64,000 nt of DNA from Octopus vulgaris (taxonomy: Eukaryota): NCBI GenBank assembly GCA_951406725.2, contig OX597816.1, forward strand, positions 179,242,001 through 179,306,000. The letters are read 5' to 3'. Both the position numbers and the translations under genes were made by a program. This document shows positions 5,902 through 57,175 of this stretch, one piece after another. Each line of letters opens with the position of its first letter. The first letter of the stretch is position 1. The notes beneath the pieces were generated by a model, which was not told where the DNA came from, made no database searches, and saw nothing but the letters and a program-made list of their open reading frames with translations.

Positions 5902-5904
<3 letters not shown>

Positions 5905-7038
5905 CATTATTGGTGAATTGAAGAAATGGAGCTGAACGCAGATTGAACAGAAATCGTTTTATTTCATTCTACACGTGTTTCGAAAGGCACAAATTACCAA
6001 AATCCGATGGAATAATGGGACCATATTGTGTCTTTCTCTTCAGGAAGAAAATAGGAAATCCGTTGGAAAAACAAAAACAGAACAGAGGCGGAGCAAAAAC
6101 AAATCGAACTATGCTCCTAAGAGCCCATGGCGAAACTGTTTATCAGTGTATGTTGAGAACCGGTGGCTGAAGAATTCAACGAAGAATTCAAGAATTCAAA
6201 TTTAGCCTTTAAGATATCTACGATTAACCACTGCAAGGGGAATTACTCCTGTAAGACAAACGGGGCTTGGTTTTTTCACAGCGTGGGGTTTCCTTGACAA
6301 GGCAGGCTTAGATGAGAACACACACACACATAAAACATGATGTATATTTTTTTTCTGCCACCCAACGGTCATCACGGCAGTAGCCACTGACAGCCGAACG
6401 ATCAAACGCACACACGTACACAAAAAATGTTTTCTACCCCTACGCCAACACACACGTATATAGAACAGTATACACACACACACGTCTCTAAGTAGATTTT
6501 TTCTCGCCCCTTATAAAACATCCAATATTCCTTAAATAGTCAGAACTTTATTCTCGGTCACAAAGAACATCTACGCCCCCTCACCCACATGATTGACCGA
6601 TGCCTGACCCGTTGAATTCTTCAGCCACCGGTTCTCAACATACACTGATAAACAGTTTCGCCATGGGCTCTTAGGAGCATAGTTCGATTTGTTTTTGCTC
6701 CGCCTCTGTTCTGTTTTTGTTTTTCCAACGGATTTCCTATTTTCTTCCTGAAGAGAAAGACACAATATGGTCCCATTATTCCATCGGATTTTGGTAATTT
6801 GTGCCTTTCGAAACACGTGTAGAATGAAATAAAACGATTTCTGTTCAATCTGCGTTCAGCTCCATTTCTTCAATTCACCAATAATGTTCTAATTTCAATT
6901 ATCCGCACCAACGCACGGTTGCAACACCATATGGTTGTACCTCCAACCGTGCTGTTTTACTGCTGTGATTTTTGCTACTAAGGTATCGGTTAAACTTTTG
7001 ATTAATCTACTACAAGATTATTCATCTTTCTATTTCAC

Positions 7039-9248: not shown

Positions 9249-9587
9249 ATGTATCTCTGGAGTCCGTTCACCTTCTACACATTTTGGATCGGGCTCTTTG
9301 TCTGTGTGGCCTTTGCGGGCGTTTATGTATTCGTGTTGCTGTTGATGGTGGGATGGGCCATTCTCTGGTGGTACCATGTTCCCCAATTGCCCGAAGAACG
9401 GGTGACATGTGTCCTCGGGTCAATAAACCCTACCAGCGATTTAGAAGAAGAACAATGCAGTCCAGAAAACACCAACTGCAATTCCGACGAACACTGCGAC
9501 GGGCGTAGCTTAACCAAACCGATTCTAGTCGCACATCGAGGTGGGGCCATCGATGCGCCGGAGAACACCATCGAAGCTTTCAAACTC
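9249..9587 (+). CDS. GDE1: Glycerophosphodiester phosphodiesterase 1, coding exon 1
   Basis: ATG at 9249; hydrophobic N-terminus then VAHRGGAIDAPENTIEAFKL (GDPD HRG/PENT motif); donor gtaagt at 9588; 339 nt, phase 0. Confidence 0.92.
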
Positions 9588-11394
9588 GTAAGTTTCTTTT
9601 TTACCGCATATATATATATATGTAGACTTATATGAAAACTGGAAAATGTATGCATACGAACATAAACAAGTAAACGCACCATTTATTATAGGAAATCGGT
9701 TCTGCTCGTAGAGATCAGAGATTCTCCCCATCTAGAACATCGCGGGGCAGCGCGAAGGATGCTGCATTTGCCAAGTTTCATCATCCAAATGACTTTCTCT
9801 TTTAGTTACGCAATCGTCTTTGGTGATCTCTTGAAATCATTTACAACATTAGTTTGTCATCTTTTGCAAAACATAATGTCCTGTCTAGCACATAGCCTCA
9901 TCTGGTCCGTATTAAAATAACTCACTACTTCGAAACCTCTCAATTCCTGTGTCCATGCGTGCGTGTGCACGTGTGTGTGTGTGTGTGTGTGTGTGTAAGT
10001 GTGTGTGTATGTATGTATATGTGTGTATGTATGTATGTGCATTAGTGCGTCTATAGAATTTTGTGTGTTTATATATATATATCCTTCAGAGGGATGTCAA
10101 ACATCCAAGTCCGCCGGAAGAGTCCAAATAAAGAATATATATAAAAGTATGTATTCAGCATTTGCAAAAATAGTAAATGATGTACAAGGAAAGGAAAAAT
10201 TGTAGTTGAAGACGAACTTTAATTCATAATCCAAGTTGGTACAGAACCGGTATACATTCTACTAATTGTTTCAGAGTCTGATTCCAAGACAAAAACGAAA
10301 AACTCTTCTCGAAATAAAAATTAGAGTTCATCTACACTAACAATTTCCTTTCTTTATACTTCATTATAGTTATATATATATATATATGTATATATATGTG
10401 TGTGTGATCCTTTCGGTTTGAACGGCAGTTTTTTCCTAACGGTGTCATATGAAATTGTCACCCATAATTATGACCCTAGTATCGATCTATTGCACTTCAA
10501 TCTATTTTAGATTTAGGGTTAGGGGTGGGGGGAAGGGTATCTTTTTCATCACAAATAAACCCGATCTGTTTCTTAAACGAGGGACAAGTTCATACGGCAC
10601 AGAATGGATTTTACCTCAATAGACATCAGTGATTGGTTGAAATTGCAGAAATTGAAAAAAAAAACAAAAACAACAAATATCTTACAAACCATAGAATTTT
10701 CTCAATAAAGCCAATAGAAAAAGATCCCTAATCAGTTGGAGTTAGCTTGGATAGATTGTGTAGAGCTGTTATTATATGGTCTTGCGATCCGGTTGCCGAG
10801 TTGGAATAGCAGCACATCGCCGATCTGATTACACCCCGACACGATTGTCGGAATTCAGTCTTCATATTACACAAACACATGACTGATAAATAAATGACAC
10901 GATGCTCTGACGGTCCTACTCAAATGCACAGGTCCCGATGCAGCTACGTAACCCTAAAACTAACCCTAGCGCTAACCCTAACGCTAACCAGTGTGCACTG
11001 TAAAAACATATCGTTACGTACATGTGTCGGGACTTTTGTATTTGTTTCTTACACATTTTTTGCACTATTTTCTTCTTCTTCTGATTTTCGTATCCGAGTC
11101 GAGTTGTAAACATTAACCCTGACTTCTTTCTGATCGGGGCAGAAAGCCCAAAATGTCGGGTTGGAACACGTGGATAGTGGAACTTTGGAAATTGGGAAGA
11201 AATATTTTAAAATTAAAAGGCAGAGGTAAAGAATACGGTCTTTCCAGAACACGTACACCACTCGTTTTCAGCGTAACAAAAGCCCTAACCCCAAGCACTG
11301 GGTGTACGTATTCTTTACTTTCGCCTGATTAAGAAAGGGACCATAATACTGCCATTATTACATCCAATACTTTCCTTAACATTCATAGAATAGA

Positions 11395-26350: not shown

Positions 26351-26360
26351 ATAATATATA

Positions 26361-26517
26361 GGCGCAGGAGTGGCTGTGTGGTAAGTAGCTTGTTTACCAA
26401 CCACATGGTTCCGGGTTCAGTCCCACTGCGTGGCATCTTAGGAAAGTGTCTTCTACTATAGCCTCGGGCCAACCAAAGCCTTGTGAGTGGATTTGGTAGA
26501 CGGAAACTGAAAGAAGC

Positions 26518-26578
<61 letters not shown>

Positions 26579-26784
26579 ATGTTTGTGTGTCTGTGTTTGT
26601 CCCCCTAGCATTGCTTGACAACCGATGCTAGTGTGTTTATGTCCCCGTCACTTAGTGGTTCGGCAAAAGAGACCGATAGAATAAGTACTGGGCTTACAAA
26701 GAATAAGTGCCAGGGTCGAGTTGCTTGATTAAAGGCGGTGCTCCAGCATGGCCACAGTCAAATGACTGAAACAAGTAAAAGAGT
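26361..26784 (+). mobile_element. tRNA-derived SINE family A, near full-length. Other copies ~3585-3725, 12900-13315, 20161-20525, 20530-20740, 28105-28210, 32246-32618, 33545-33980, 34270-34660, 39720-39860, 41670-44512 (interrupted), 45155-45520, 52671-52790
   Basis: Head ggcgcaggagtggctgtgtggtaag (A box)...ggttcagtccc (B box), CORE-like ttRggNaagtgtctt segment, internal (TA)n, tail gactgaaacaagtaaaaga. Confidence 0.9.
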
Positions 26785-26812
26785 ATATAGAATATATATA
26801 ATATATATATTC

Positions 26813-33817: not shown

Positions 33818-35616
33818 TTCACACACATGGTGAGCTTCTTTCAGTTTCCATCTACCAAATCCACTCAAGGCTTTAGTCAGCCTGAGACTATAGTAGAAGA
33901 CACTTGCCCAAGATGCCATGCAGTGGGACTGAACCCAGAACCATGTGGTTGGGAAGCAAGCTTCTTACCACACAGTCCCACCTGCGTCTTGTTCAATCCC
34001 ATGACAGAAAAGAAGAAATTACATGGAAACAAACTCTACTTTTATAAATATGAATGACATGGAAATTTCACAAATATTTAATGGGTAGGGATCTGGTATT
34101 TTTCAGTTTGGGAACCACTGATCCATGCTCTGATAATTACTGGGAAGACTGTACTTTACTGAGGAGGTTTCATAAGCTTGAAACATGTCTGGAGTTGTCA
34201 CTGTACATACCACAGATCGGACACACCTCTCACTCTGCTGGCATTCAATGTGTGAATAAGAAATATAAAACTAAATAAAGTGGATTCAATTCCACTGCAT
34301 GACACCTTGGGCTAGCAAAAGCATTGTAAGTGGATTTGGTTGACAGAAACTGAAAGAAGCCTGATGTAGTGTGTGTGTCTATGTATATGTGTGTGTGTGT
34401 GTGTGTGCGCACACGCATGCATGTGCATGTGTGTACGTGCGCATGTGTGTGTGTGAGTGAATATGTTTGTGTTTGACCCCCCAAACCACTTGACAACAGG
34501 TGCTGGTGTGTTTGCATCCCTGTAACTTAGTGGCTCAACAATAATGACCCATAAAATAAGCACCAGGCTTAAAGAAAAGTCCTGGGGTTGATTCATTCAA
34601 CTAAAAATTCTTTAAGGTGGAGCCTGGCTGCAGTCTAATGACTGAAACAAGTAAAGGATATATACCACCTTTGCATATAAATTATAAGCAATAAATTAAT
34701 ACTCTCATTTGTTTAGGTATGTATAAATGTGGAGCATTTAATTTTACTGAATTGTAGCAAAAGGTAGGATTGAAAAGTGGCAAAAGAAAGGAGTTGATAA
34801 TGAAAAAGAAACTGAGACGTGTTGAGTTTGGTTGTAAGGTAGAAATAAGATTGCTCTTACCTGCAGATGCAATTAGCAATAGTATATCCAAACTTTGAGC
34901 CACAGGAACTCAGCAATCATACCCTCACATGCACTCTGCCTGAGCTTCTGGCCAGAAGTGACTATTCCCCTAAAATGATTCTCCAAAACATGTCTGTTGC
35001 ACTCAATGCCCTTTTGGAGAGAAAAGCTGTTCAAAGACCCTGCTTTTTTTGTGTGACATCCCTTCCCCTCACTTCCAGTCCTTGTTGCTCCCTTCATTCT
35101 TCCACTTGCCCTCCCCTGATCTAAAGATCATTGCTCTTCTATTTCATTTCAAAATCGTCTACCTGGGTGGGTGACATTCCCTTTAGGGCTGGTTTCTCTC
35201 TCCTCTTCGTCATCAGAGGAGCTGACCACCCTGCAAACATCCAAGATGTGACATGACAAACTTAGATTCTCTCTTAATTAGTTTGTGACGGTGAAATGGC
35301 TGAGTTAATAAGATGTTAGACTACTTCCTCATACGTCCTGAGTTCAAATCCGTTACGTGTGCTTTTTTGTGTTTCTGGTGAAAATAACTTTATTCTGGAG
35401 TTAATCTAGTTGAAGAAAACCAGGCAAATGTTTCTTTTATTTAATCTACATCCTATCATGTGTAATGTTATAAAATTGGGAATAAAAAGGCCTATCCTTA
35501 ATCTTCTCCAGTAGATTAAGAGTCATTTACAAAATATGTGTTTTTAGGATTGTCATTAATAGCTTTAAATCCAGTTTTAGAAAGAAAGTTTCTAAGTTCA
35601 AACTCAATTATAAGAT

Positions 35617-36569
35617 ATGCATGCATGCGTGTATGCATGCATGTGCGTATGCATGCATGTGCGTATGCATGCATGTGCGTATGCATGCATGTGCGTATGC
35701 ATGCATGTGCGTATGCATGCATGCGTGTATGCATGCATGTGTGTATGCATGCATGCGTGTATGCATGCATGCGTGTATGCATGCATGTGTGTATGCATGC
35801 ATGTGTGTATGCATGCATGTGCGTATGCATGCATGTGTGTATGCATGCATGTGTGTATGCATGCATGCGTGTATGCATGCATGTGTGTATGCATGCATGC
35901 GTGTATGCATGCATGTGCGTATGCATGCATGTGTGTATGCATGCATGTGTGTATGCATGCATGTGTGTATGCATGCATGCGTGTATGCATGCATGTGTGT
36001 ATGCATGCATGCGTGTATGCATGCATGCGTGTATGCATGCATGCGTGTATGCATGCATGTGTGTATGCATGCATGCGTGTATGCATGCATGCGTGTATGC
36101 ATGCATGCGTGTATGCATGCATGCGTGTATGCATGTATGTGTGTATGCATGCATGTGTGTATGCATGCATGTGTGTATGCATGCATGTGTGTATGCATGC
36201 ATGTGCGTATGCATGCATGTGTGTATGCATGCATGTGTGTATGCATGCATGTGTGTATGCATGCATGTGTGTATGCATGCATGTGTGTATGCATGCATGT
36301 GTGTATGCATGCATGCGTGTATGCATGCATGTGTGTATGCATGCATGCGTGTATGCATGCATGCGTGTATGCATGCATGCGTGTATGCATGCATGTGTGT
36401 ATGCATGCATGTGTGTATGCATGCATGCGTGTATGCATGCATGCGTGTATGCATGCATGTGTGTATGCATGCATGTGCGTATGCATGCATGTGTGTATGC
36501 ATGCATGTGTGTATGCATGCATGTGCGTATGCATGCATGTGTGTATGCATGCATGTGTGTATGCATGCA
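35617..36569. repeat. 16-bp minisatellite (ATGCATGCATGYGYGT) x59
   Basis: First unit starts 35617, last full unit 36545-36560 (58 x 16 later), so the phase is unbroken. Confidence 0.97.
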
Positions 36570-36837
36570 CATGTGCACACACATGTGTGAATGGCATGCA
36601 TGAATATGACTGGAGGTCAGATTAAGAAGACAAATTAACCAAAGGTTTAGAATTTTAAATTTAATTTCTGAGTGTTAATCCTGTTAAAAATTATTTATCA
36701 TAAAATGTAGTTTTCATTTATTTTGATTTTTATCATTTCTTTAATATTTTCAGTTTCAGCAATTATTTATACATTTAATTTGAACTTTTAGTTATTTTTT
36801 AATAAATGTCTGCTTTTTGTATTTCTGTTCCTTTTAG

Positions 36838-41660: not shown

Positions 41661-42313
41661 TATCTAATATACTCTTTTACTTGTTTCAGTCATTTGACTG
41701 TGGCCATGCTGGAGCACCGCCTTTAGTCAAGCAAATCGACCCCAGGACTTATTCTTTTGTAAGCCCAGTACTTATTCTATCGGTCTCTTTTGCTGAACCG
41801 CTAAGTGACGGGGACGTAAACACACCAGCATCGGTTGTCAAGCAATGCTAGGAGGACAAACACAGACACACAAACATATACACACATACATATATATATA
41901 CATATATACGACAGGCTTCTTTCACAAGGCTTTGGTCGGCCCGGGGCTATAGCAGAAGACACTTGCCCAAGGTTCCACGCAGTGAGACTGAACCCGGAAC
42001 CATGTGGTTGGTTAGCAAGCTACTTTATTTCATTTAATTTGCCACAAGGGCAGTACACAGATAGTAGCTACGGGCTGGACATAGACATTAATGAATGATG
42101 GTGATGGAATGAAGATGGTGATGGGAGAAGACGAAAGCGCCCGCCGACCCCCGCTTCTCTAAAACAATGTTCTTTTTTCAATAATTTTACAAAATTTTCA
42201 AAATTTCACAAAAATACAAAAATTTCACAAAAATTCCAAATTTTACAAATCACAATTTCAAAAGTTTTTCCAGAGGCAAAAAACCTCCATCACAATATAA
42301 CACAAATACAGGT

Positions 42314-43513
42314 TCACGTTACCCGACCGATGAACGCTCTTGCTTTATTGACGCAATCGTTCGCCGTCAGGCCCCTGCATACAGGTAAAATTTGATAGGA
42401 GTCCTCCGGGAAAGATTTCACGAACCTGCACCGATCGTCATGGAGTAGGACCTCCGCAGCCAGCTGCGAAGGCCACTCGGGATACTCCATGCAGGACCGG
42501 AGTCCCTCCCATTGGTTTCTCTTCCTCATTTTACCTATTTCATCTTCTATTGTTCCTCCTTTGTAGAAGAGGACTACATAATATTTCTCCGGCCACACAA
42601 TCACAAACGGCAGAGGAGACATTGGAGACGCCGTCTGCGTGTTACAATCCGCTGGCGGTGTTCCATTTCTCTTCTTTCTTTTTTTCTTTTTACCGTGGGC
42701 CACGGGAGGTTGAGGTTCCGGTGTTGCACACGCCGGATCCACTCTGTCTCCCGTAGCTTCCTGGTCTTTTAGTGGGTCACCATTGTTCCCCACTTTTCGT
42801 TTTCTCGTTGAGGAAGTCTCCGCTTCCTCGTTCTGTTTCTCTCCCTCTATTGGTGGGGCAGGGAGAGGCTCCGATATCAACTTCTCCAGGATCCTACTTT
42901 GGTCCCTGGGGCATTTCTTCTTAATGTGGCCGGTCTCCGAACACAGGTGACACTTGGGGGCGCGTCCCTCTAGCATCACCGGATACTTGGACCCGGCCAT
43001 CTTCAGGAAGTCCGGCAAAACCAGACTCTTGGCCAACTGGGTCCACAGAGTCAAAGTAGCCTTTCCTCCTTCCCAGTTAGCCACAGGCTGCATTTTCACA
43101 TTCAGGATCTTGGCGCTACCACCGCTTAGACCCCGGCGGATGGAATCTTCCACCCACTCGGGCTCAAAGCCGGGCGGCAGGCCACAGACCCATAAACGTA
43201 ACAATTTTTCCCCCTTGTAACTGGGGAGAAACAGAATCTCATCGCCCTCAATGGGCTGGCTTGCAAATTTGCAAGCTGCTTCAGCGGAGTCAAATAGCAA
43301 CCATACCGTTGCGTATTTGACTCCCCGTTGAATATGTTTAACGGCTGGCATATAGTCTGCCAGCTCGTTCACAATGGTGTCTCTCGGAAAAACCATTATG
43401 GTGTCGAGTGACTTTGAATATGTCCTCAACACCACGGTCTTTTCCTCGAGTTCGTGCAAATATTTTTTGGGAGGTGTTAATTCCCACACAGTGAAATTCT
43501 TTGCCTTTGCCAT
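42314..43513 (-). CDS. Gag-like ORF1 protein with CCHC zinc knuckle (L1/Tx1-type), 399 aa
   Basis: Uninterrupted ORF; CHLCSETGHIKKKC = CX2CX4HX4C, preceded by an RRM-like segment (LWVCGLPP) and followed by a basic, NLS-like disordered region (KKKKRKKR). Confidence 0.8.
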   Translation of the reverse strand: MAKAKNFTVWELTPPKKYLHELEEKTVVLRTYSKSLDTIMVFPRDTIVNELADYMPAVKHIQRGVKYATVWLLFDSAEAACKFASQPIEGDEILFLPSYKGEKLLRLWVCGLPPGFEPEWVEDSIRRGLSGGSAKILNVKMQPVANWEGGKATLTLWTQLAKSLVLPDFLKMAGSKYPVMLEGRAPKCHLCSETGHIKKKCPRDQSRILEKLISEPLPAPPIEGEKQNEEAETSSTRKRKVGNNGDPLKDQEATGDRVDPACATPEPQPPVAHGKKKKRKKRNGTPPADCNTQTASPMSPLPFVIVWPEKYYVVLFYKGGTIEDEIGKMRKRNQWEGLRSCMEYPEWPSQLAAEVLLHDDRCRFVKSFPEDSYQILPVCRGLTANDCVNKARAFIGRVT

Positions 43514-43841
43514 AACGTAAAATACAACAGTTCAAAATGATAAACTAAAATTAGCCACAGAAAGGAGAATGAAAAAATGCAACAGAAGGGAAGAAATAAA
43601 ATTAAAAATGGCAGTTCAAAAAAGTTTTTACAAATAAATAATAGACAGAGAAAGAGAGTTCAATTCAGACAAAGGAATTCAGTTCTTTTTTTTTTTTTTT
43701 TTCCACTTCTTCGGCCAAAAATTGTAATCCAGGCCAAATGCACTGTTGGTAAAACCCTTGGTAAATAATCCTTGGTAATCCGTGGACAACACAACGACAA
43801 TTTCAACAATAATTTTTTCAGACGGACTATGCCGCTTCAAA

Positions 43842-44433
43842 AATACAATTTCTTTTCACTCGACACAGGCAGAAAAATTATATCTGGAGCAAAGTGGAGC
43901 CTTATTATTTGCTAAAAAATATTAAATGCTAAAAAACATTCATGCAAGTAATAAAACTTCACTAAACTCGCAAAAACATAAAACGCCTACCCGTAGTCGA
44001 TTCGAACGTTCAACAATTCACGTTGAAATAACGCGACATCAATACAATTTTCTTTCCACTCGACACAGGCAGAAAAATTATATCCGGAGCAAAGTGGAGC
44101 CTTATTATCTGCTAAAAATATTAAATGCTAAAAAAACATTCATGCAAGTAATAAAACTTCACTAAACTCGCAAAAACACAAAACGCCTACCCGTAGTCGA
44201 TTCGAACGTTCAACAATTCACGTTGAAACAACGCGACATCAATACAATTTTCTTTCCACTCGACACAGGCAGAAAAATTATATCCGGAGCAAAGTGGAGC
44301 CTTATTACTTGCTAAAAAATATTTAATGCTAAAAAACATTCATGCAAGTAATAAAACTTCACTTCGCTCACAAAAATACAAAATTCCTACCTTTAGTCGA
44401 GTCGAAAGTTCAACAATTCACGTTGAAACAACG
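43842..44433 (-). repeat. Three tandem ~200-bp monomers in the 5' UTR of the ORF1-only element
   Basis: cgacacaggcagaaaaatta starts at 43861, 44061 and 44261 (period exactly 200). Confidence 0.95.
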
Positions 44434-47400
44434 TTCATCTGGAGCAGCAAAAAAACACGTCCGAACAGTTCAGAGGTTAGCGAGCTACTTACCACACAGC
44501 CACTCCTGCGCCTATATATATAGTTGATCAAAGTTAGTCTGAAAGAGGTGAGGACAAATGACTGGTTGTGTCAGTGCTGGTGACATGTAAAGGGCACCTG
44601 GTATACTCTGTGGAGTGGTTGGCATTAGGAAGGGCATCCAACCATAGAAACCAAGCTACAACAGATGGGAGCCTGCTGCAACTCTCTGGCTTACCAGTCC
44701 CTGTCAAACCATCCAACCCATGCCAGCATGGAAAACGGATGCTGAATAATGATGATGATGATGATGATGAAAGTAAGGAGATCAATTTTTGATATCTAGT
44801 TAGACAAAACAGATAATCTTTAACAGACCAGACAAATGGTTAACTGAAATAGAAAGATATGCAAGTATTGATTAAATAAATGTTTAAAATATGGAGACAT
44901 GCAATACCAGAAGTAATACAATCTGTAGATATGGCTACTAATAGAATGAAGTAAGAAGTTAACTGAAATGGGAATCAAAATTTGAACAAACTGCTTCTAA
45001 ATATTACTTTACCAGGAATATCTGGAGAATTAAGTACAGTGTTAGAAATCTGCATTAAATACCAAATAAAGTAAGTATAAAAGGATTTTGTTACCAGAAA
45101 TTATGAGGCATGAATTTTAGAATAAGATTATTGAAATTGGAAAAGAGAAATAAATATGTGACTGTGTGGTAAGAAGCTTGCTTCCCAACCACATGGTTCC
45201 AGGGTCAGTCCCTCTACATGGCACCTTGGGCAGCTGTTTTCTACTATAGCCTTGGGCTGACCAAAGCCTTGTGAGATTTGGTAGATGGAAACTAAAAGAA
45301 GCCCATCATATAGTTGTGTGTTTGTGTCTGAGTCTGTCCTCCCCCATCACTGCTTGACAACCAGTGTTGGTGTGTTAACATTCCCTGTAACCTAGTGGTT
45401 CGGCAAAAGAGACTGATAGTATAAGTACAAGGCTTAAAAAAAAAAAAAAGTCCTGTGGTCGATTTGTTCAAGGCAGTGTTCCAGCATGGCTGCAGTCAAA
45501 TGACTGAAATAAGTAAAAGAATAATGGTTTTCTTATTTTGGTAAAGGGAAAGATGTAGGCATCTGAAATAATTCTGGTAGTTAACTGTTGTATATTTTGC
45601 TGCATGCAGGCAATGGATTTGAAGAAAGCATCACATACATGCCACTTAGACACTTCATTCCAGATATGTCCCAGTTTGGGGAATAGAAATTAAGAAAATG
45701 CCATCCAATAGGATATGAAAACCTGTTTTCCTTCAACTGCATTCTAACAAAATCCCTGCACACAAAAGAAACACAGTTAAACCTTGTTAGAGTTGCTACA
45801 AATGCTAGATCTCACAATGGTGACCATGTCTCTAACATAGCTAGGATTGCATTCCAAAAACCACACTTCTTTTATCAGAGCCAAACTTGAGCTTCTATGA
45901 GACCACTTGACATGCTAGAAATAGCAGCCAAATCTTAAATCACAGCCTATCATCTTAAAAAAATATACAAAAAGATGTGATGGTAATCGCTACAATGCCT
46001 TTGGTCATAGTTGTGCTTTGTTTAGACTAACATCAAAGTCACAACTTCAGCTCTGAATAGTTGCTGAGTCTCTACAATGTCATAAGCAAAACCCATATTA
46101 GAATACTGCTTAGATGTCTGGGATGGTGCTGTTGATACACAAATATTACAGATCATCACCACTAAAAAGTCATTTGGTTGATTGGTAAGCATTACACTAC
46201 CACCACAGACATGCTGTCTCTTCCATATCTGCTACATTGACTGCTGCTTTCATGAACTCGTTAACAGTGCACTATATCAAAGTTCACCTAACGTACTTGG
46301 CTCTCTTCAACGTGTTCTTTCTACAACATCTGTTTTACCTCATAAATCCAGTGCTTCAGTCTTATCTTTCTTAATTCCTGTCTGAAGTGCAGTACATAGC
46401 AATTATCTTTGTCTTGTATCATTGTTATTCTGAAACTCCTGTATAGGGCCTTCTTCCCACTGCAGGTATCTGGAATACTGTCCAAGTCTACGTTTACCTG
46501 ACAGAAATCAACCCAGAAACAAGTAGGTGAACACCACTTCAATCTGCAAGGACTTCCAAATGTCTTGGACACATCTCCCTTTCATGGTTCTTGATAGCAT
46601 CTCTGAATGAAAACAAGGTGTAAACCATCCATTCATACCAGCTTGGGAAATTTGACTTTTGTGAAATTTGGCATAACATATTTTTATATATTTGATTTGC
46701 GAGATTCTTGATATGAAATCATGTGTTGAAACATTGTTATACTTGGGGATGGTCATCTTTTGCCAACTAAACACACTCTATGTTTGATCTTTACTTTATT
46801 ATTATTATTATTGTTTCTTTGTCAAAGCTCTTTTGTTGCACACCGTGTGACCTCTTCAGTGATTGTTTGTTGTATGTGTCCACAATTGACAAAGCAAAAC
46901 AAGAGGAGACATGTGGGACAAAGAGTCACTGAAAAGCTTTGACAAAGAAACTAAAATGATAATAATAGAGCTGAGGTAAAGACCAAACATGGAAGGTATG
47001 TTTAACTGGCAAAATATGACCACCCCCAAGTATAACAATTTTTGCATATACATGAGAAGCAAGGATCTTTCAGCCTGATCTGCTGTGCCATCCACTTTAC
47101 CTGAGTCACCCTCTTTCACTTTAACGATGACTAGATGAAGACCTAAAATGCATTTCTGTCTTTTCTACAGTTATTTACCCACCCAGAACTTCAACTCTCT
47201 AGAATTCCTTCTTGGTTTATTCTTCTAATAAATATATTTTAACATCCAGTTTAATGTTCAACTTATTGAAATACTTCTTCATAAAAACTGCATAAAAACA
47301 TAATTGAAAAACAACAAAACATGATTATTATTTCCATATATTTATTATGTTTGTAATAAAAGAAAGCAAAACAAGGAAAACTACAAAATAGATAATTTAA

Positions 47401-56074: not shown

Positions 56075-57175
56075 TCCTTTTTGAGTCAAATGATCATTAT
56101 TAACACCTCGTGCTTTTTTATTTTAAAAAAGGCAAGAAAGTGGCAGAAACTTGCAGAAAGATATGTGCTGAGTATGGAGAAGAGACTGTTGAGGAATGTG
56201 TGTACTGGAAGTGGTTTTCGAGGTTTTGACCAGGAAATTTTTTGGTTCTAGGTGCACCACACTCTGACCAGCCAACTGAGATTAACAGTGACATAATATA
56301 GGAGTTATTCAACCCAAATTCCTGTTATACAACAAAGATAATTGCAGATGTTCTCCAAATGTCCAAACTGAGTGCTGAAAACCAACTGCATCAAAATGGT
56401 TATGTCAGCAGGTTTGATGTTTTGGGTCCAACATCAGTTGAGTGAGGCTAACCTTACCCAACAGATTTCCATCTGTGATTCATTGCAGAAACATGAAGGA
56501 AACGATTCTTTTTGGAAGAGAATAGTGATAGGGGTAAAAAATAGAATGTCTATAACAATGTGAAGTGCAAATGATGATGGGAGAAGCATGGTGAACCACC
56601 ACAAACTCACTCCAAGTAGGAGTTCACCTGAAGAAGGTTATGTTTTCAATTTGGTGGGGCTGGAAGGGTGTTATCTTTTACAAGCATTTTCCCATGAACA
56701 AGATCATCACTTCAGATGTGTACTGTAATCAGCTCCACAAATTAAACACAGCACTCCACCAAAAGCATCCAGCACTTGCTAATTGTAAGGGCATTGGTTT
56801 TCACCATGAGAATGCCAGACCCTTCTTTGCAGACAGAGCAGAAGTTACTGGGGTTTGGCTGGAAAGTTTTGCTGCACTCTCCATATTCACTCAACCTTGC
56901 ATCTGCAGATTTACACCTGTTTCAGCCTTTCAAAAATTCATTGAATGGATAGACCTTCATCTCTAAAGAGGATGTAAAAATCCACTTGGAAGAATTTTCA
57001 CCTTTTAAGACAAGAAATTTTTTGAGTAGGGAATATCAGATCTGCTCACAAGATCACAGAAGATACCAGAACAAAATGGTAATTATATGATTGATTAAAT
57101 AAATTTCTTTATGTTTAAAATTTGTGCTTTATTTTTGCTTAAAAAGACCAAACAACCTGTTTTGTGAACTCAATA
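56075..57175 (+). mobile_element. Decayed mariner transposon (transposase pseudogene)
   Basis: WVQHQL (WVPHEL-like), RIVIG, KVMFSIWWGWKGV, YCNQL, FHHENARP, HSPYSLNLASADLHLF (YSPDLAP-like) in order, with stops and frameshifts. Confidence 0.88.

Follow-up and report, generated by a model that had tools for sequence, protein, structure and literature searches.

The window analysed here, 64,000 nt of Octopus vulgaris DNA, harbors an ORF1-only non-LTR element that splits the head of a SINE (Table 1). Most of the anatomy proposed from a sequence-only reading was borne out. The 2.45-kb unit is indeed bounded by a TSD, which is 16 bp long with one mismatch. It is the sole word of at least 10 nt (at most one mismatch) common to both junction regions, and none of 300 random window pairs reached 16 nt, the longest being 12. 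The 5' tandem monomers are present in three copies, with 178-193 identities of 198 in pairwise comparison, and are likely an internal promoter. The 3' UTR, predicted at ~290 bp, measures 288 nt. The proposed lack of an endonuclease and reverse transcriptase (EN and RT) agrees with stops in all six frames of both UTRs, where no EN/RT-like stretch or ORF2 remnant was found by eye. Also as proposed, there is no poly(A) tail: at most three A's follow AAT at the junction, two of them common to the TSD, and AATAAA exists only across the 3' junction, where the first two TSD bases complete it. These two A's can equally be taken for microhomology with the start of an A tail. A hairpin predicted in the tail was no better than those of shuffled sequences (z -0.46 and +1.04).

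Table 1. Features of the element and of its host SINE, in window coordinates.
Feature	Position	Strand	Basis or remark
Host SINE head, 5' piece; A-box-like motif at 44492-44502	44491..44513	-	matches intact copy at 26360
TSD, 5' copy, 16 bp	44475..44490	-	one mismatch vs 3' copy
ORF1-only non-LTR element	42026..44474	-	TSD-bounded, 2,449 bp
Unique 5' leader, 41 nt	44434..44474	-	sequence; outside the stretch compared with run contigs
Three tandem 200-bp 5' monomers	43842..44433	-	period 200, 3.0 copies, 93% matches
Proximal 5' UTR, U-rich, internal A17 run at 43686-43702	43514..43841	-	sequence
ORF1, 399 aa, open	42314..43513	-	program ORF list
ORF1 domains: predicted RRM aa ~13-102, predicted RRM aa ~103-183, CCHC knuckle aa 187-202, basic disordered linker, C-terminal ~100 aa			
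3' UTR, 288 nt: U-rich spacer, then terminal block ~42026-42217; end ...GAAATA	42026..42313	-	
TSD, 3' copy; start = inferred first nick, 5'-CTT/A-3' on opposite strand	42010..42025	-	
Host SINE remainder; B-box-like motif at 41984-41994	41667..42009	-	matches intact copy

When the flanks are rejoined, they match an intact SINE copy at 26354-26790, with 93% identity over 45 nt of the head and 94/104 and 209/220 aligned bases in the rest. The head contains what we take to be A- and B-box-like motifs, assigned by the box consensus. In SINE numbering, nt 12-22 form the A-box-like motif, nt 24 is the first base of the TSD and the B-box-like motif lies at nt 55. The head is split 1 nt behind the A box, in agreement with the proposed placement just after it, and the unit and the SINE share the same orientation, as had been stated. 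The insertion puts the B-box-like motif 2.46 kb further from its A box. The description of the SINE head as tRNA-derived is supported by the two motifs, but neither ARAGORN nor Rfam called a tRNA within the window.

The protein encoded by the element is predicted to be a type I ORF1 protein with the arrangement RRM-RRM-CCHC. The structural model has a pLDDT of 82-96 over aa 11-220, with tandem-RRM structural matches, and the zf-CCHC match at aa 187-202 is weak (E 0.0045, falling short of the Pfam cut-off). ORF1 motifs are conserved among distant homologues. Transposase_22 was not matched, at E up to 1, in ORF1 or in the 23 families listed for 28 aligned members. The closest relative is an Octopus sinensis protein (60%), and the match between the two stops near aa 272-278. 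The C-terminal ~100 aa carry no domain assignment; aa 295-399 have a pLDDT of 40-58 and no Atlas match. By eye this region suggested the 'FP.D' domain at the C terminus of other cephalopod ORF1s, a candidate that failed two tests: an HMM did not report aa 295-399 while reporting 391 of 500 shuffles, and in hhalign 22 of 100 shuffles scored as well. No ORF1 relatives were present among 92, 3 and 56 pattern matches in metagenome, viral and prokaryote contigs, respectively. The claim of an intact 399-aa zinc-knuckle ORF1 stands as regards the open frame, but at seven ORF sites, four of which change a residue, nearly all run-contig depth differs from the window copy.

Other copies were sought in contigs of four public runs (X2, X3, X4 and X11; the read type of X2 is uncertain, perhaps RNA), compared with 42026-44060, from the 3' end to the first monomer. 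This stretch is covered by near-identical contigs in all four runs. Contigs cross the stop codon into the UTR in X3 (42221-42472, depth 59.5, six differences) and X4 (42281-42450, depth 88.6, three differences), and in X2 (42133-42513, depth 25.8, six differences) the contig continues into the terminal block. X2 is the only run of the four with a single contig from the ORF to that block, and X11 has no stop-codon crossing, in both cases among the contigs listed. The mean of two rare joints, ~7 in X3 and ~15 in X4, served as a proxy for a single locus; the stop-to-UTR contigs stand at ~8 and ~6 times this proxy, respectively. One further joint in X4 connects 42178 to 42219 with five letters between (depth 32). 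The terminal block of the 3' UTR is common to a wider family, the depth at 42074-42217 being 10-20 times higher than in the spacer at 42218-42289 (X3, X4 and X11 contigs). Among the contigs listed are 12 indels, two in the ORF (6-nt, in frame) and 10 outside it (single-base).

The coverage and the bridging of the stop-to-UTR junction, in two runs above single-locus depth, favor an ORF1-only family over a lone deletion. The unit is probably a young copy of a non-autonomous ORF1-only LINE family that would borrow EN and RT from a full-length LINE, likely of the L1/Tx1 group. The young multi-copy family of the sequence-only reading is consistent with contig depth and bridging, but no assembled second copy was seen, as no contig spanning the whole unit is among those listed for the four runs. 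An ORF1 dN/dS below 1, which the sequence-only reading named as support, did not emerge from a small test (40 of 374 rows listed): eight of 31 ORF substitutions were synonymous and 23 non-synonymous, without a synonymous excess (P 0.40 and 0.68 vs neutral). RRM/CCHC ORF1s fit the Tx1 clade (PMC5203782). The ORF1 of the unit conforms to this type, but RRM plus CCHC is not diagnostic of Tx1, since several clades possess type I ORF1s (PMC4120745).

A plausible mechanism for such a family can be outlined. The monomers would drive transcription of the element, and the predicted RNA-binding ORF1 protein would coat its own RNA. The ORF2 protein of a partner might bind the conserved 3' block or an A tail, nick at 5'-CTT/A-3' and prime on the first A's after AATA. 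Priming on these A's would leave a TSD and no visible tail.

It is a tentative possibility that the same ORF1-only family is served by a sequence-specific Tx1-type partner endonuclease that cuts the SINE head just behind the A box. This proposal differs from the preferred one in the choice of site only and is otherwise compatible with it. Landing sites would then be both safe and plentiful for the family, and insertion would pull the SINE's A box apart from its B box. A random hit in a SINE head is a ~1 in 100 event, because heads of the host family cover ~0.9% of the window (the three queried family parts cover 4.5%), and the shared orientation of unit and SINE also points to targeting. A rare joint that links 42052 to 42154, with a shorter side of 31 nt in both X4 and X11, implies a variant whose match may extend by 4 nt into these same bases of the target, a weak indication that may reflect an allele of this locus. 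However, the coincidence is a single case noticed post hoc. The sequence 5'-CTT/A-3' is a relaxed L1-type nick site, and the window holds 424 instances of CTTA. Uninterrupted SINE contigs diverge from the reference at 42025 in all four runs; the loose-end rows listed are filled by them, with 1,080 further rows beyond those listed. Tx1-clade families aim at other transposons and small-RNA genes (PMC4494074), but the literature searched turned up no Tx1 family with a target inside a tRNA or SINE head, Dewa targeting a spacer. The landing in the SINE head, at one site, is more likely due to chance than to aim. The full proposal, an ORF1-only LINE and a Tx1-type partner that aim at the head of the very abundant SINE, cut it 1 nt past the A box and so split its Pol III promoter, is rather doubtful.

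It is unlikely that the unit arose by internal deletion, at one or a few loci, from an autonomous LINE whose other copies carry ORF2, with extra ORF1-only copies arising by DNA duplication or as alleles. Contig depth is greater over the 5' half than over the 3' half (74-84 vs 26-30 in X2; 388-443 vs 89 in X4). A contig of X2 departs from the ORF near aa 272 and has ~500 nt beyond this point for which no alignment is shown, and the O. sinensis protein stops matching in the same region. Because of the deeper 5' half and this contig, some relatives have a different 3' half, which could include ORF2. The lack of a synonymous excess is also consistent with a deletion. Yet contigs of X3 and X4 run across the stop codon into the UTR at several times the depth of a single locus, a contig of X2 also does so, and the UTR frames hold no ORF2 remnant by eye. 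A 6-kb LINE with 5' truncation is expected to pile up at its tail, but the tail is not enriched over ORF1; summed depth, which is no copy number, is similar for the terminal block (~280-600 times the proxy) and the conserved ORF1 blocks (~370-600; X3, X4 and X11). The clean TSD fits insertion at the present length of 2.45 kb, but it would equally survive a deletion that came later. In favor of a deletion, 13 recently active L1-Tx1 families are annotated in O. vulgaris, with 421 insertions over 2.29 Mb (PMC13282606), an average of ~5.4 kb each by arithmetic from these figures.

It is very unlikely that the unit is the retrocopy of a host gene domesticated from an ORF1-like sequence (ZCCHC3-like), or that it derives, as an ORF1-only element, from a clade other than L1 (I, L2, CR1 or Jockey). 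In favor of such origins, the Atlas neighbours of ORF1 are CCHC and ZCCHC3-like proteins (0.90-0.93; ZCCHC3-like clusters, 0.89-0.91), three accessions give the O. sinensis relative as a gene, and many different clades contain type I ORF1s. Against them, the unit shows L1-group traits, namely 5' monomers in tandem, a TSD of 16 bp and a nick at TT/A. The high contig depth along the whole compared stretch indicates a repeat family, and the O. sinensis protein appears decayed, having lost the first knuckle cysteine and ending at aa 281.

The search for the partner ORF2 of the preferred ORF1-only family gave negative results. No ORF1-ORF2 fusion was found in longer proteins among 6,400 and 6,273 candidates, which is weak evidence, and no L1-type EN or RT in the 34 of 45 representative ORF1 matches scanned with Pfam. 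An integrase in one scanned match (P0037) and a TatD nuclease in another (P0015) belong to proteins that each aligned to the query over ~40 aa only. A 20-nt tail pattern hit two loci in metagenome contigs, both by chance; one (L001) lies inside a bacterial ABC-F-like gene and the other (L002) has no further match to the window. Four of the eight supplementary text files of PMC9115989 contained no match to the element sequence.

The unit probably works like HAL1, HeT-A and TRE5-A.2, a known kind of element. Trans-mobilised ORF1-only LINEs have precedent (PMC5786205, PMC3159450). Like other ORF1-present non-autonomous LINEs, the unit encodes an ORF1 protein and no ORF2 (one ORF, closed UTR frames) and was inserted as a whole, with a TSD. 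HAL1 of mammals is likewise non-autonomous, encodes only the ORF1 protein and keeps both LINE ends (PMC5753468, PMC5786205). Mammalian L1 ORF1 proteins are type II (coiled coil, RRM and CTD; Transposase_22), however, and HAL1 has a 3' poly(A) tail; with its predicted type I ORF1 and missing tail, the unit does not qualify as HAL1 proper. TRE5-A.2 of Dictyostelium discoideum is an analogy: it is ORF1-only, its 5' promoter module is 200 bp long and its 3' module short, and it is mobilised in trans and associated with tRNA genes (PMC3159450). TRE5-A inserts ~50 bp upstream of tRNA genes via contact of its ORF1 protein with TFIIIB, and a C-module hairpin is required there (PMC3159450), whereas the unit lies inside the head between the boxes and its predicted hairpin is not significant. 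HeT-A (Jockey clade) and Ag-Sponge (CR1 clade) are also ORF1-present non-autonomous LINEs, but of other clades; HeT-A lacks pol, and its Gag directs targeting, to chromosome ends (PMC5786205, PMC5537684).

Among target-specific systems, Tx1L, Keno, Dewa, Mutsu and Tx1-Mar insert into multicopy RNA genes or abundant transposons, the Tx1-clade targets comprising U2 and U5 snRNA, 5S rRNA, microsatellites, a tRNA-Leu array spacer and other transposons; these LINEs are autonomous, unlike the unit (PMC4494074, PMC3706591). As a criterion of target specificity, PMC4494074 uses a share of more than 20% of copies in a single kind of flank. Dada DNA transposons also go into tRNA genes, in many cases at the A box, but are DDE-type with 6-7 bp TSDs (PMC3706591, PMC8869645). 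The unit does not qualify as a Dada element, given its 16-bp TSD and the absence of a transposase match to ORF1 in the Pfam scan.

If copies share the SINE site, the known targets of Tx1-type endonucleases would grow by a new class, and a sequence-specific nuclease not yet described would be indicated. Were SINE targeting true, the SINE would be a vast, harmless landing pad in a mollusc, and the element a parasite of a parasite that silences its host repeat by splitting the Pol III promoter. LINE derivatives that keep only ORF1 have been described in mammals, Drosophila, mosquito and Dictyostelium. The open-access literature searched listed none from a cephalopod, though the O. vulgaris repeat library (Zenodo) or Repbase may contain this one. 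Given a young family whose ORF1 is of type I, the ORF1-only strategy would reach as far as molluscs, and an ORF1-only family is easily missed by RT-based annotation.

The insertion at 42026-44474 proved to be a real ORF1-only unit, as the sequence-only reading had claimed: it covers 2,449 bp, reads on the minus strand, is bounded by a target-site duplication (TSD), carries 5' monomers and an intact ORF, and has no poly(A) at its 3' end. A shared word of 16 nt was found in none of 300 random window pairs, in which the maximum was 12. No ORF2-like stretch was found by eye in the UTRs of the unit, where stops break all six frames. The AATAAA across the 3' junction was also verified, its final two bases coming from the start of the TSD; alternatively, these two bases may be the A's with which a tail began and on which priming took place. 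A predicted hairpin in the tail folded no better than shuffles. A near-palindrome occurs in each monomer (44404-44428), and across 44252-44408 the monomers show weak similarity to their own reverse complement (67% over 161 nt).

Components of the ORF1-only unit and its flanking duplication
Feature	Position or size	Strand	Detail
TSD	42010-42025 and 44475-44490		16 bp, one mismatch
5' leader	41 nt	minus	
5' monomers	three x 200 bp	minus	93% matches
Proximal 5' UTR	328 nt	minus	
ORF1	399 aa	minus	
3' UTR	288 nt	minus	

Public sequencing runs indicate that the unit has relatives. The run search returned 20 holders from 11 studies and 5 organism codes, with up to 0.71 of words shared. Contigs of four of the 24 listed runs (X2, whose type is uncertain, X3, X4 and X11) were placed on 41930-44060, with two monomers and the 5' junction outside, and covered 30 of 30 bins in all four. 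Contigs bridge the stop codon to the same UTR in X3 (depth 59.5), X4 (88.6) and X2 (25.8), the X2 contig extending to the terminal block, the end of the 3' UTR common to the wider family; among the X11 contigs listed, none crosses the stop codon. A joint in X4 connects the terminal block with the proximal UTR across just 5 letters. Contig depth is no copy number, by the tool's own warning, and was scaled to a single-locus proxy, the mean depth of two rare joints present in three runs (about 15 in X4, 7 in X3 and 56 in X11). On this scale the stop codon has a summed depth of 13-52, compared with 280-600 for the terminal block and 370-600 for the conserved blocks of ORF1. The SINE reaches about 600,000-700,000, roughly twice the expectation from 8 heads per 64 kb in a 2.8-Gb genome (PMC13282606, in part), indicating that the scale overcounts. 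The depths fit a few hundred copies for the wider family, including at most some tens in a close subfamily, and the near-equal abundance of tail and ORF1 is better fitted by short ORF1-only units than by a full-length LINE undergoing 5' truncation.

The stop-to-UTR contigs and the similar depths of tail and ORF1 thus favor the ORF1-only family proposed from sequence, but depth is higher over the 5' half than over the 3' half (74-84 vs 26-30 in X2; 388-443 vs 89 in X4), which speaks against it. This excess, together with a 721-nt X2 contig that departs from the ORF near aa 272, indicates that some relatives have a different 3' half, which might include ORF2. The anticipated ORF1 dN/dS below 1 found no support in a small set of substitutions. 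Among the substitutions listed (40 of 374), 31 lie within the ORF, and the 8 synonymous and 23 non-synonymous changes match the no-selection expectation (P 0.40 and 0.68), a weak test because differences between subfamilies are pooled here with changes found in the window copy alone. Both indels inside the ORF, among the 12 of 55 listed, preserve the frame.

Pfam returned a single weak match for ORF1, a zinc knuckle at aa 187-202. The AlphaFold2 model, for which 28 sequences were aligned, has high confidence at aa 11-220 (block pLDDT 82-96) and resembles tandem-RRM proteins in Foldseek (E 2e-5); the first RRM gave Z 9.8 and rmsd 2.6 over 83 residues by VIA-align. On this predicted structure, ORF1 is a type I ORF1. 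Since type I ORF1 is spread over several LINE clades (PMC4120745 and PMC5203782, each in part), the clade is not fixed by the protein alone. The sole match in a near-length search, Octopus sinensis LOC115225585 (60% over 280 aa), is missing the first cysteine of the knuckle and stops at aa 281. The full HMMER search gave 45 matches at E up to 0.001; six of the ten matches checked bear octopod names (O. bimaculoides, two O. vulgaris, two O. sinensis and Argonauta), and one is a plant knuckle-repeat protein, which points to an octopus as the likely host. A likeness by eye of the last 100 residues to the relatives' C-termini failed two shuffle tests. A gene model of O. sinensis that carries an integrase (P0037) includes 40 aa with 55% identity to the ORF1 N-terminus, which suggests an ORF1-family fragment adjoining an LTR element. 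Four distant relatives (P0004, P0046-P0048) come from Logan contigs that measure 1.85-1.93 kb each and leave no room for ORF2; they possibly represent another ORF1-only unit, or merely broken contigs.

The unit works like HAL1, HeT-A and Ag-Sponge, grouped as ORF1-present non-autonomous LINEs (PMC5786205, in part), and like TRE5-A.2, whose promoter module is likewise 200 bp long and which is mobilized in trans (PMC3159450, in part). It is not HAL1 proper, which has a type II ORF1 and poly(A). The ORF1-only strategy is already known, and the unit adds another case. For O. vulgaris, 13 L1-Tx1 families with recent activity are reported in the available portion of PMC13282606, where no family of the ORF1-only type is mentioned. 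The monomers would act as promoter and ORF1p would package its own RNA; an L1/Tx1-type ORF2p would then nick the target in trans and prime at the 3' end, leaving the TSD. The partner ORF2 invoked earlier was not found in a Pfam scan of 34 of the 45 ORF1 matches or in longer-protein searches.

The rejoined flanks form a copy of the common SINE of the window, 90-95% alike to the intact copy at 26354-26790 with the microsatellite left out. The TSD begins at SINE nt 24, 1 nt past the A-box-like motif and before the B-box-like motif, which we place at nt 12-22 and nt 55 on an assumed box consensus. The insertion has moved the two boxes 2.46 kb apart, and Pol III transcription of that SINE copy has therefore likely ended. 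Neither ARAGORN nor Rfam called a tRNA. Targeting of SINE heads by the family, proposed from this one site, seems rather doubtful. SINE heads make up only about 0.9% of the window, which favors targeting; the TT/A nick, presumably a relaxed L1-type site, counts against it. Genes for small RNAs and other transposons do serve as targets of Tx1-clade families (PMC4494074, in part), but literature searches found no Tx1-clade insertion inside a tRNA or SINE head. Uninterrupted SINEs leave the reference at 42025 in all four runs (806, 100, 715 and 1,462 contigs), and among the loose ends listed, a listing that left out 1,080 rows, none shows the flank of another copy of the unit. A joint from 41971 in the SINE to 43518, in the 5' UTR just before the start codon, occurs at low depth in three of four runs with a shorter side of 22 nt, and may reflect chance or a locus rearranged long ago.

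Other features accompany the unit in the window. A pair of 280-nt arms at 5902-6889, 100% complementary and separated by 428 nt, begins directly behind a (TA)n run and resembles a MITE-type or foldback insertion of very recent origin. The plus-strand ORF at 9249-9635 is probably a host-gene exon; its terminal 'VAHRGG...PENT' motif is one we take to be typical of glycerophosphodiester phosphodiesterases, and Pfam gave no match to the ORF at E 0.01. A mariner-type transposase fragment lies at 56640-56966 on the plus strand (Transposase_1, E 4.7e-14), and 35616-36602 is occupied by a homogeneous 16-bp tandem array of 61.8 copies with 94% matches.
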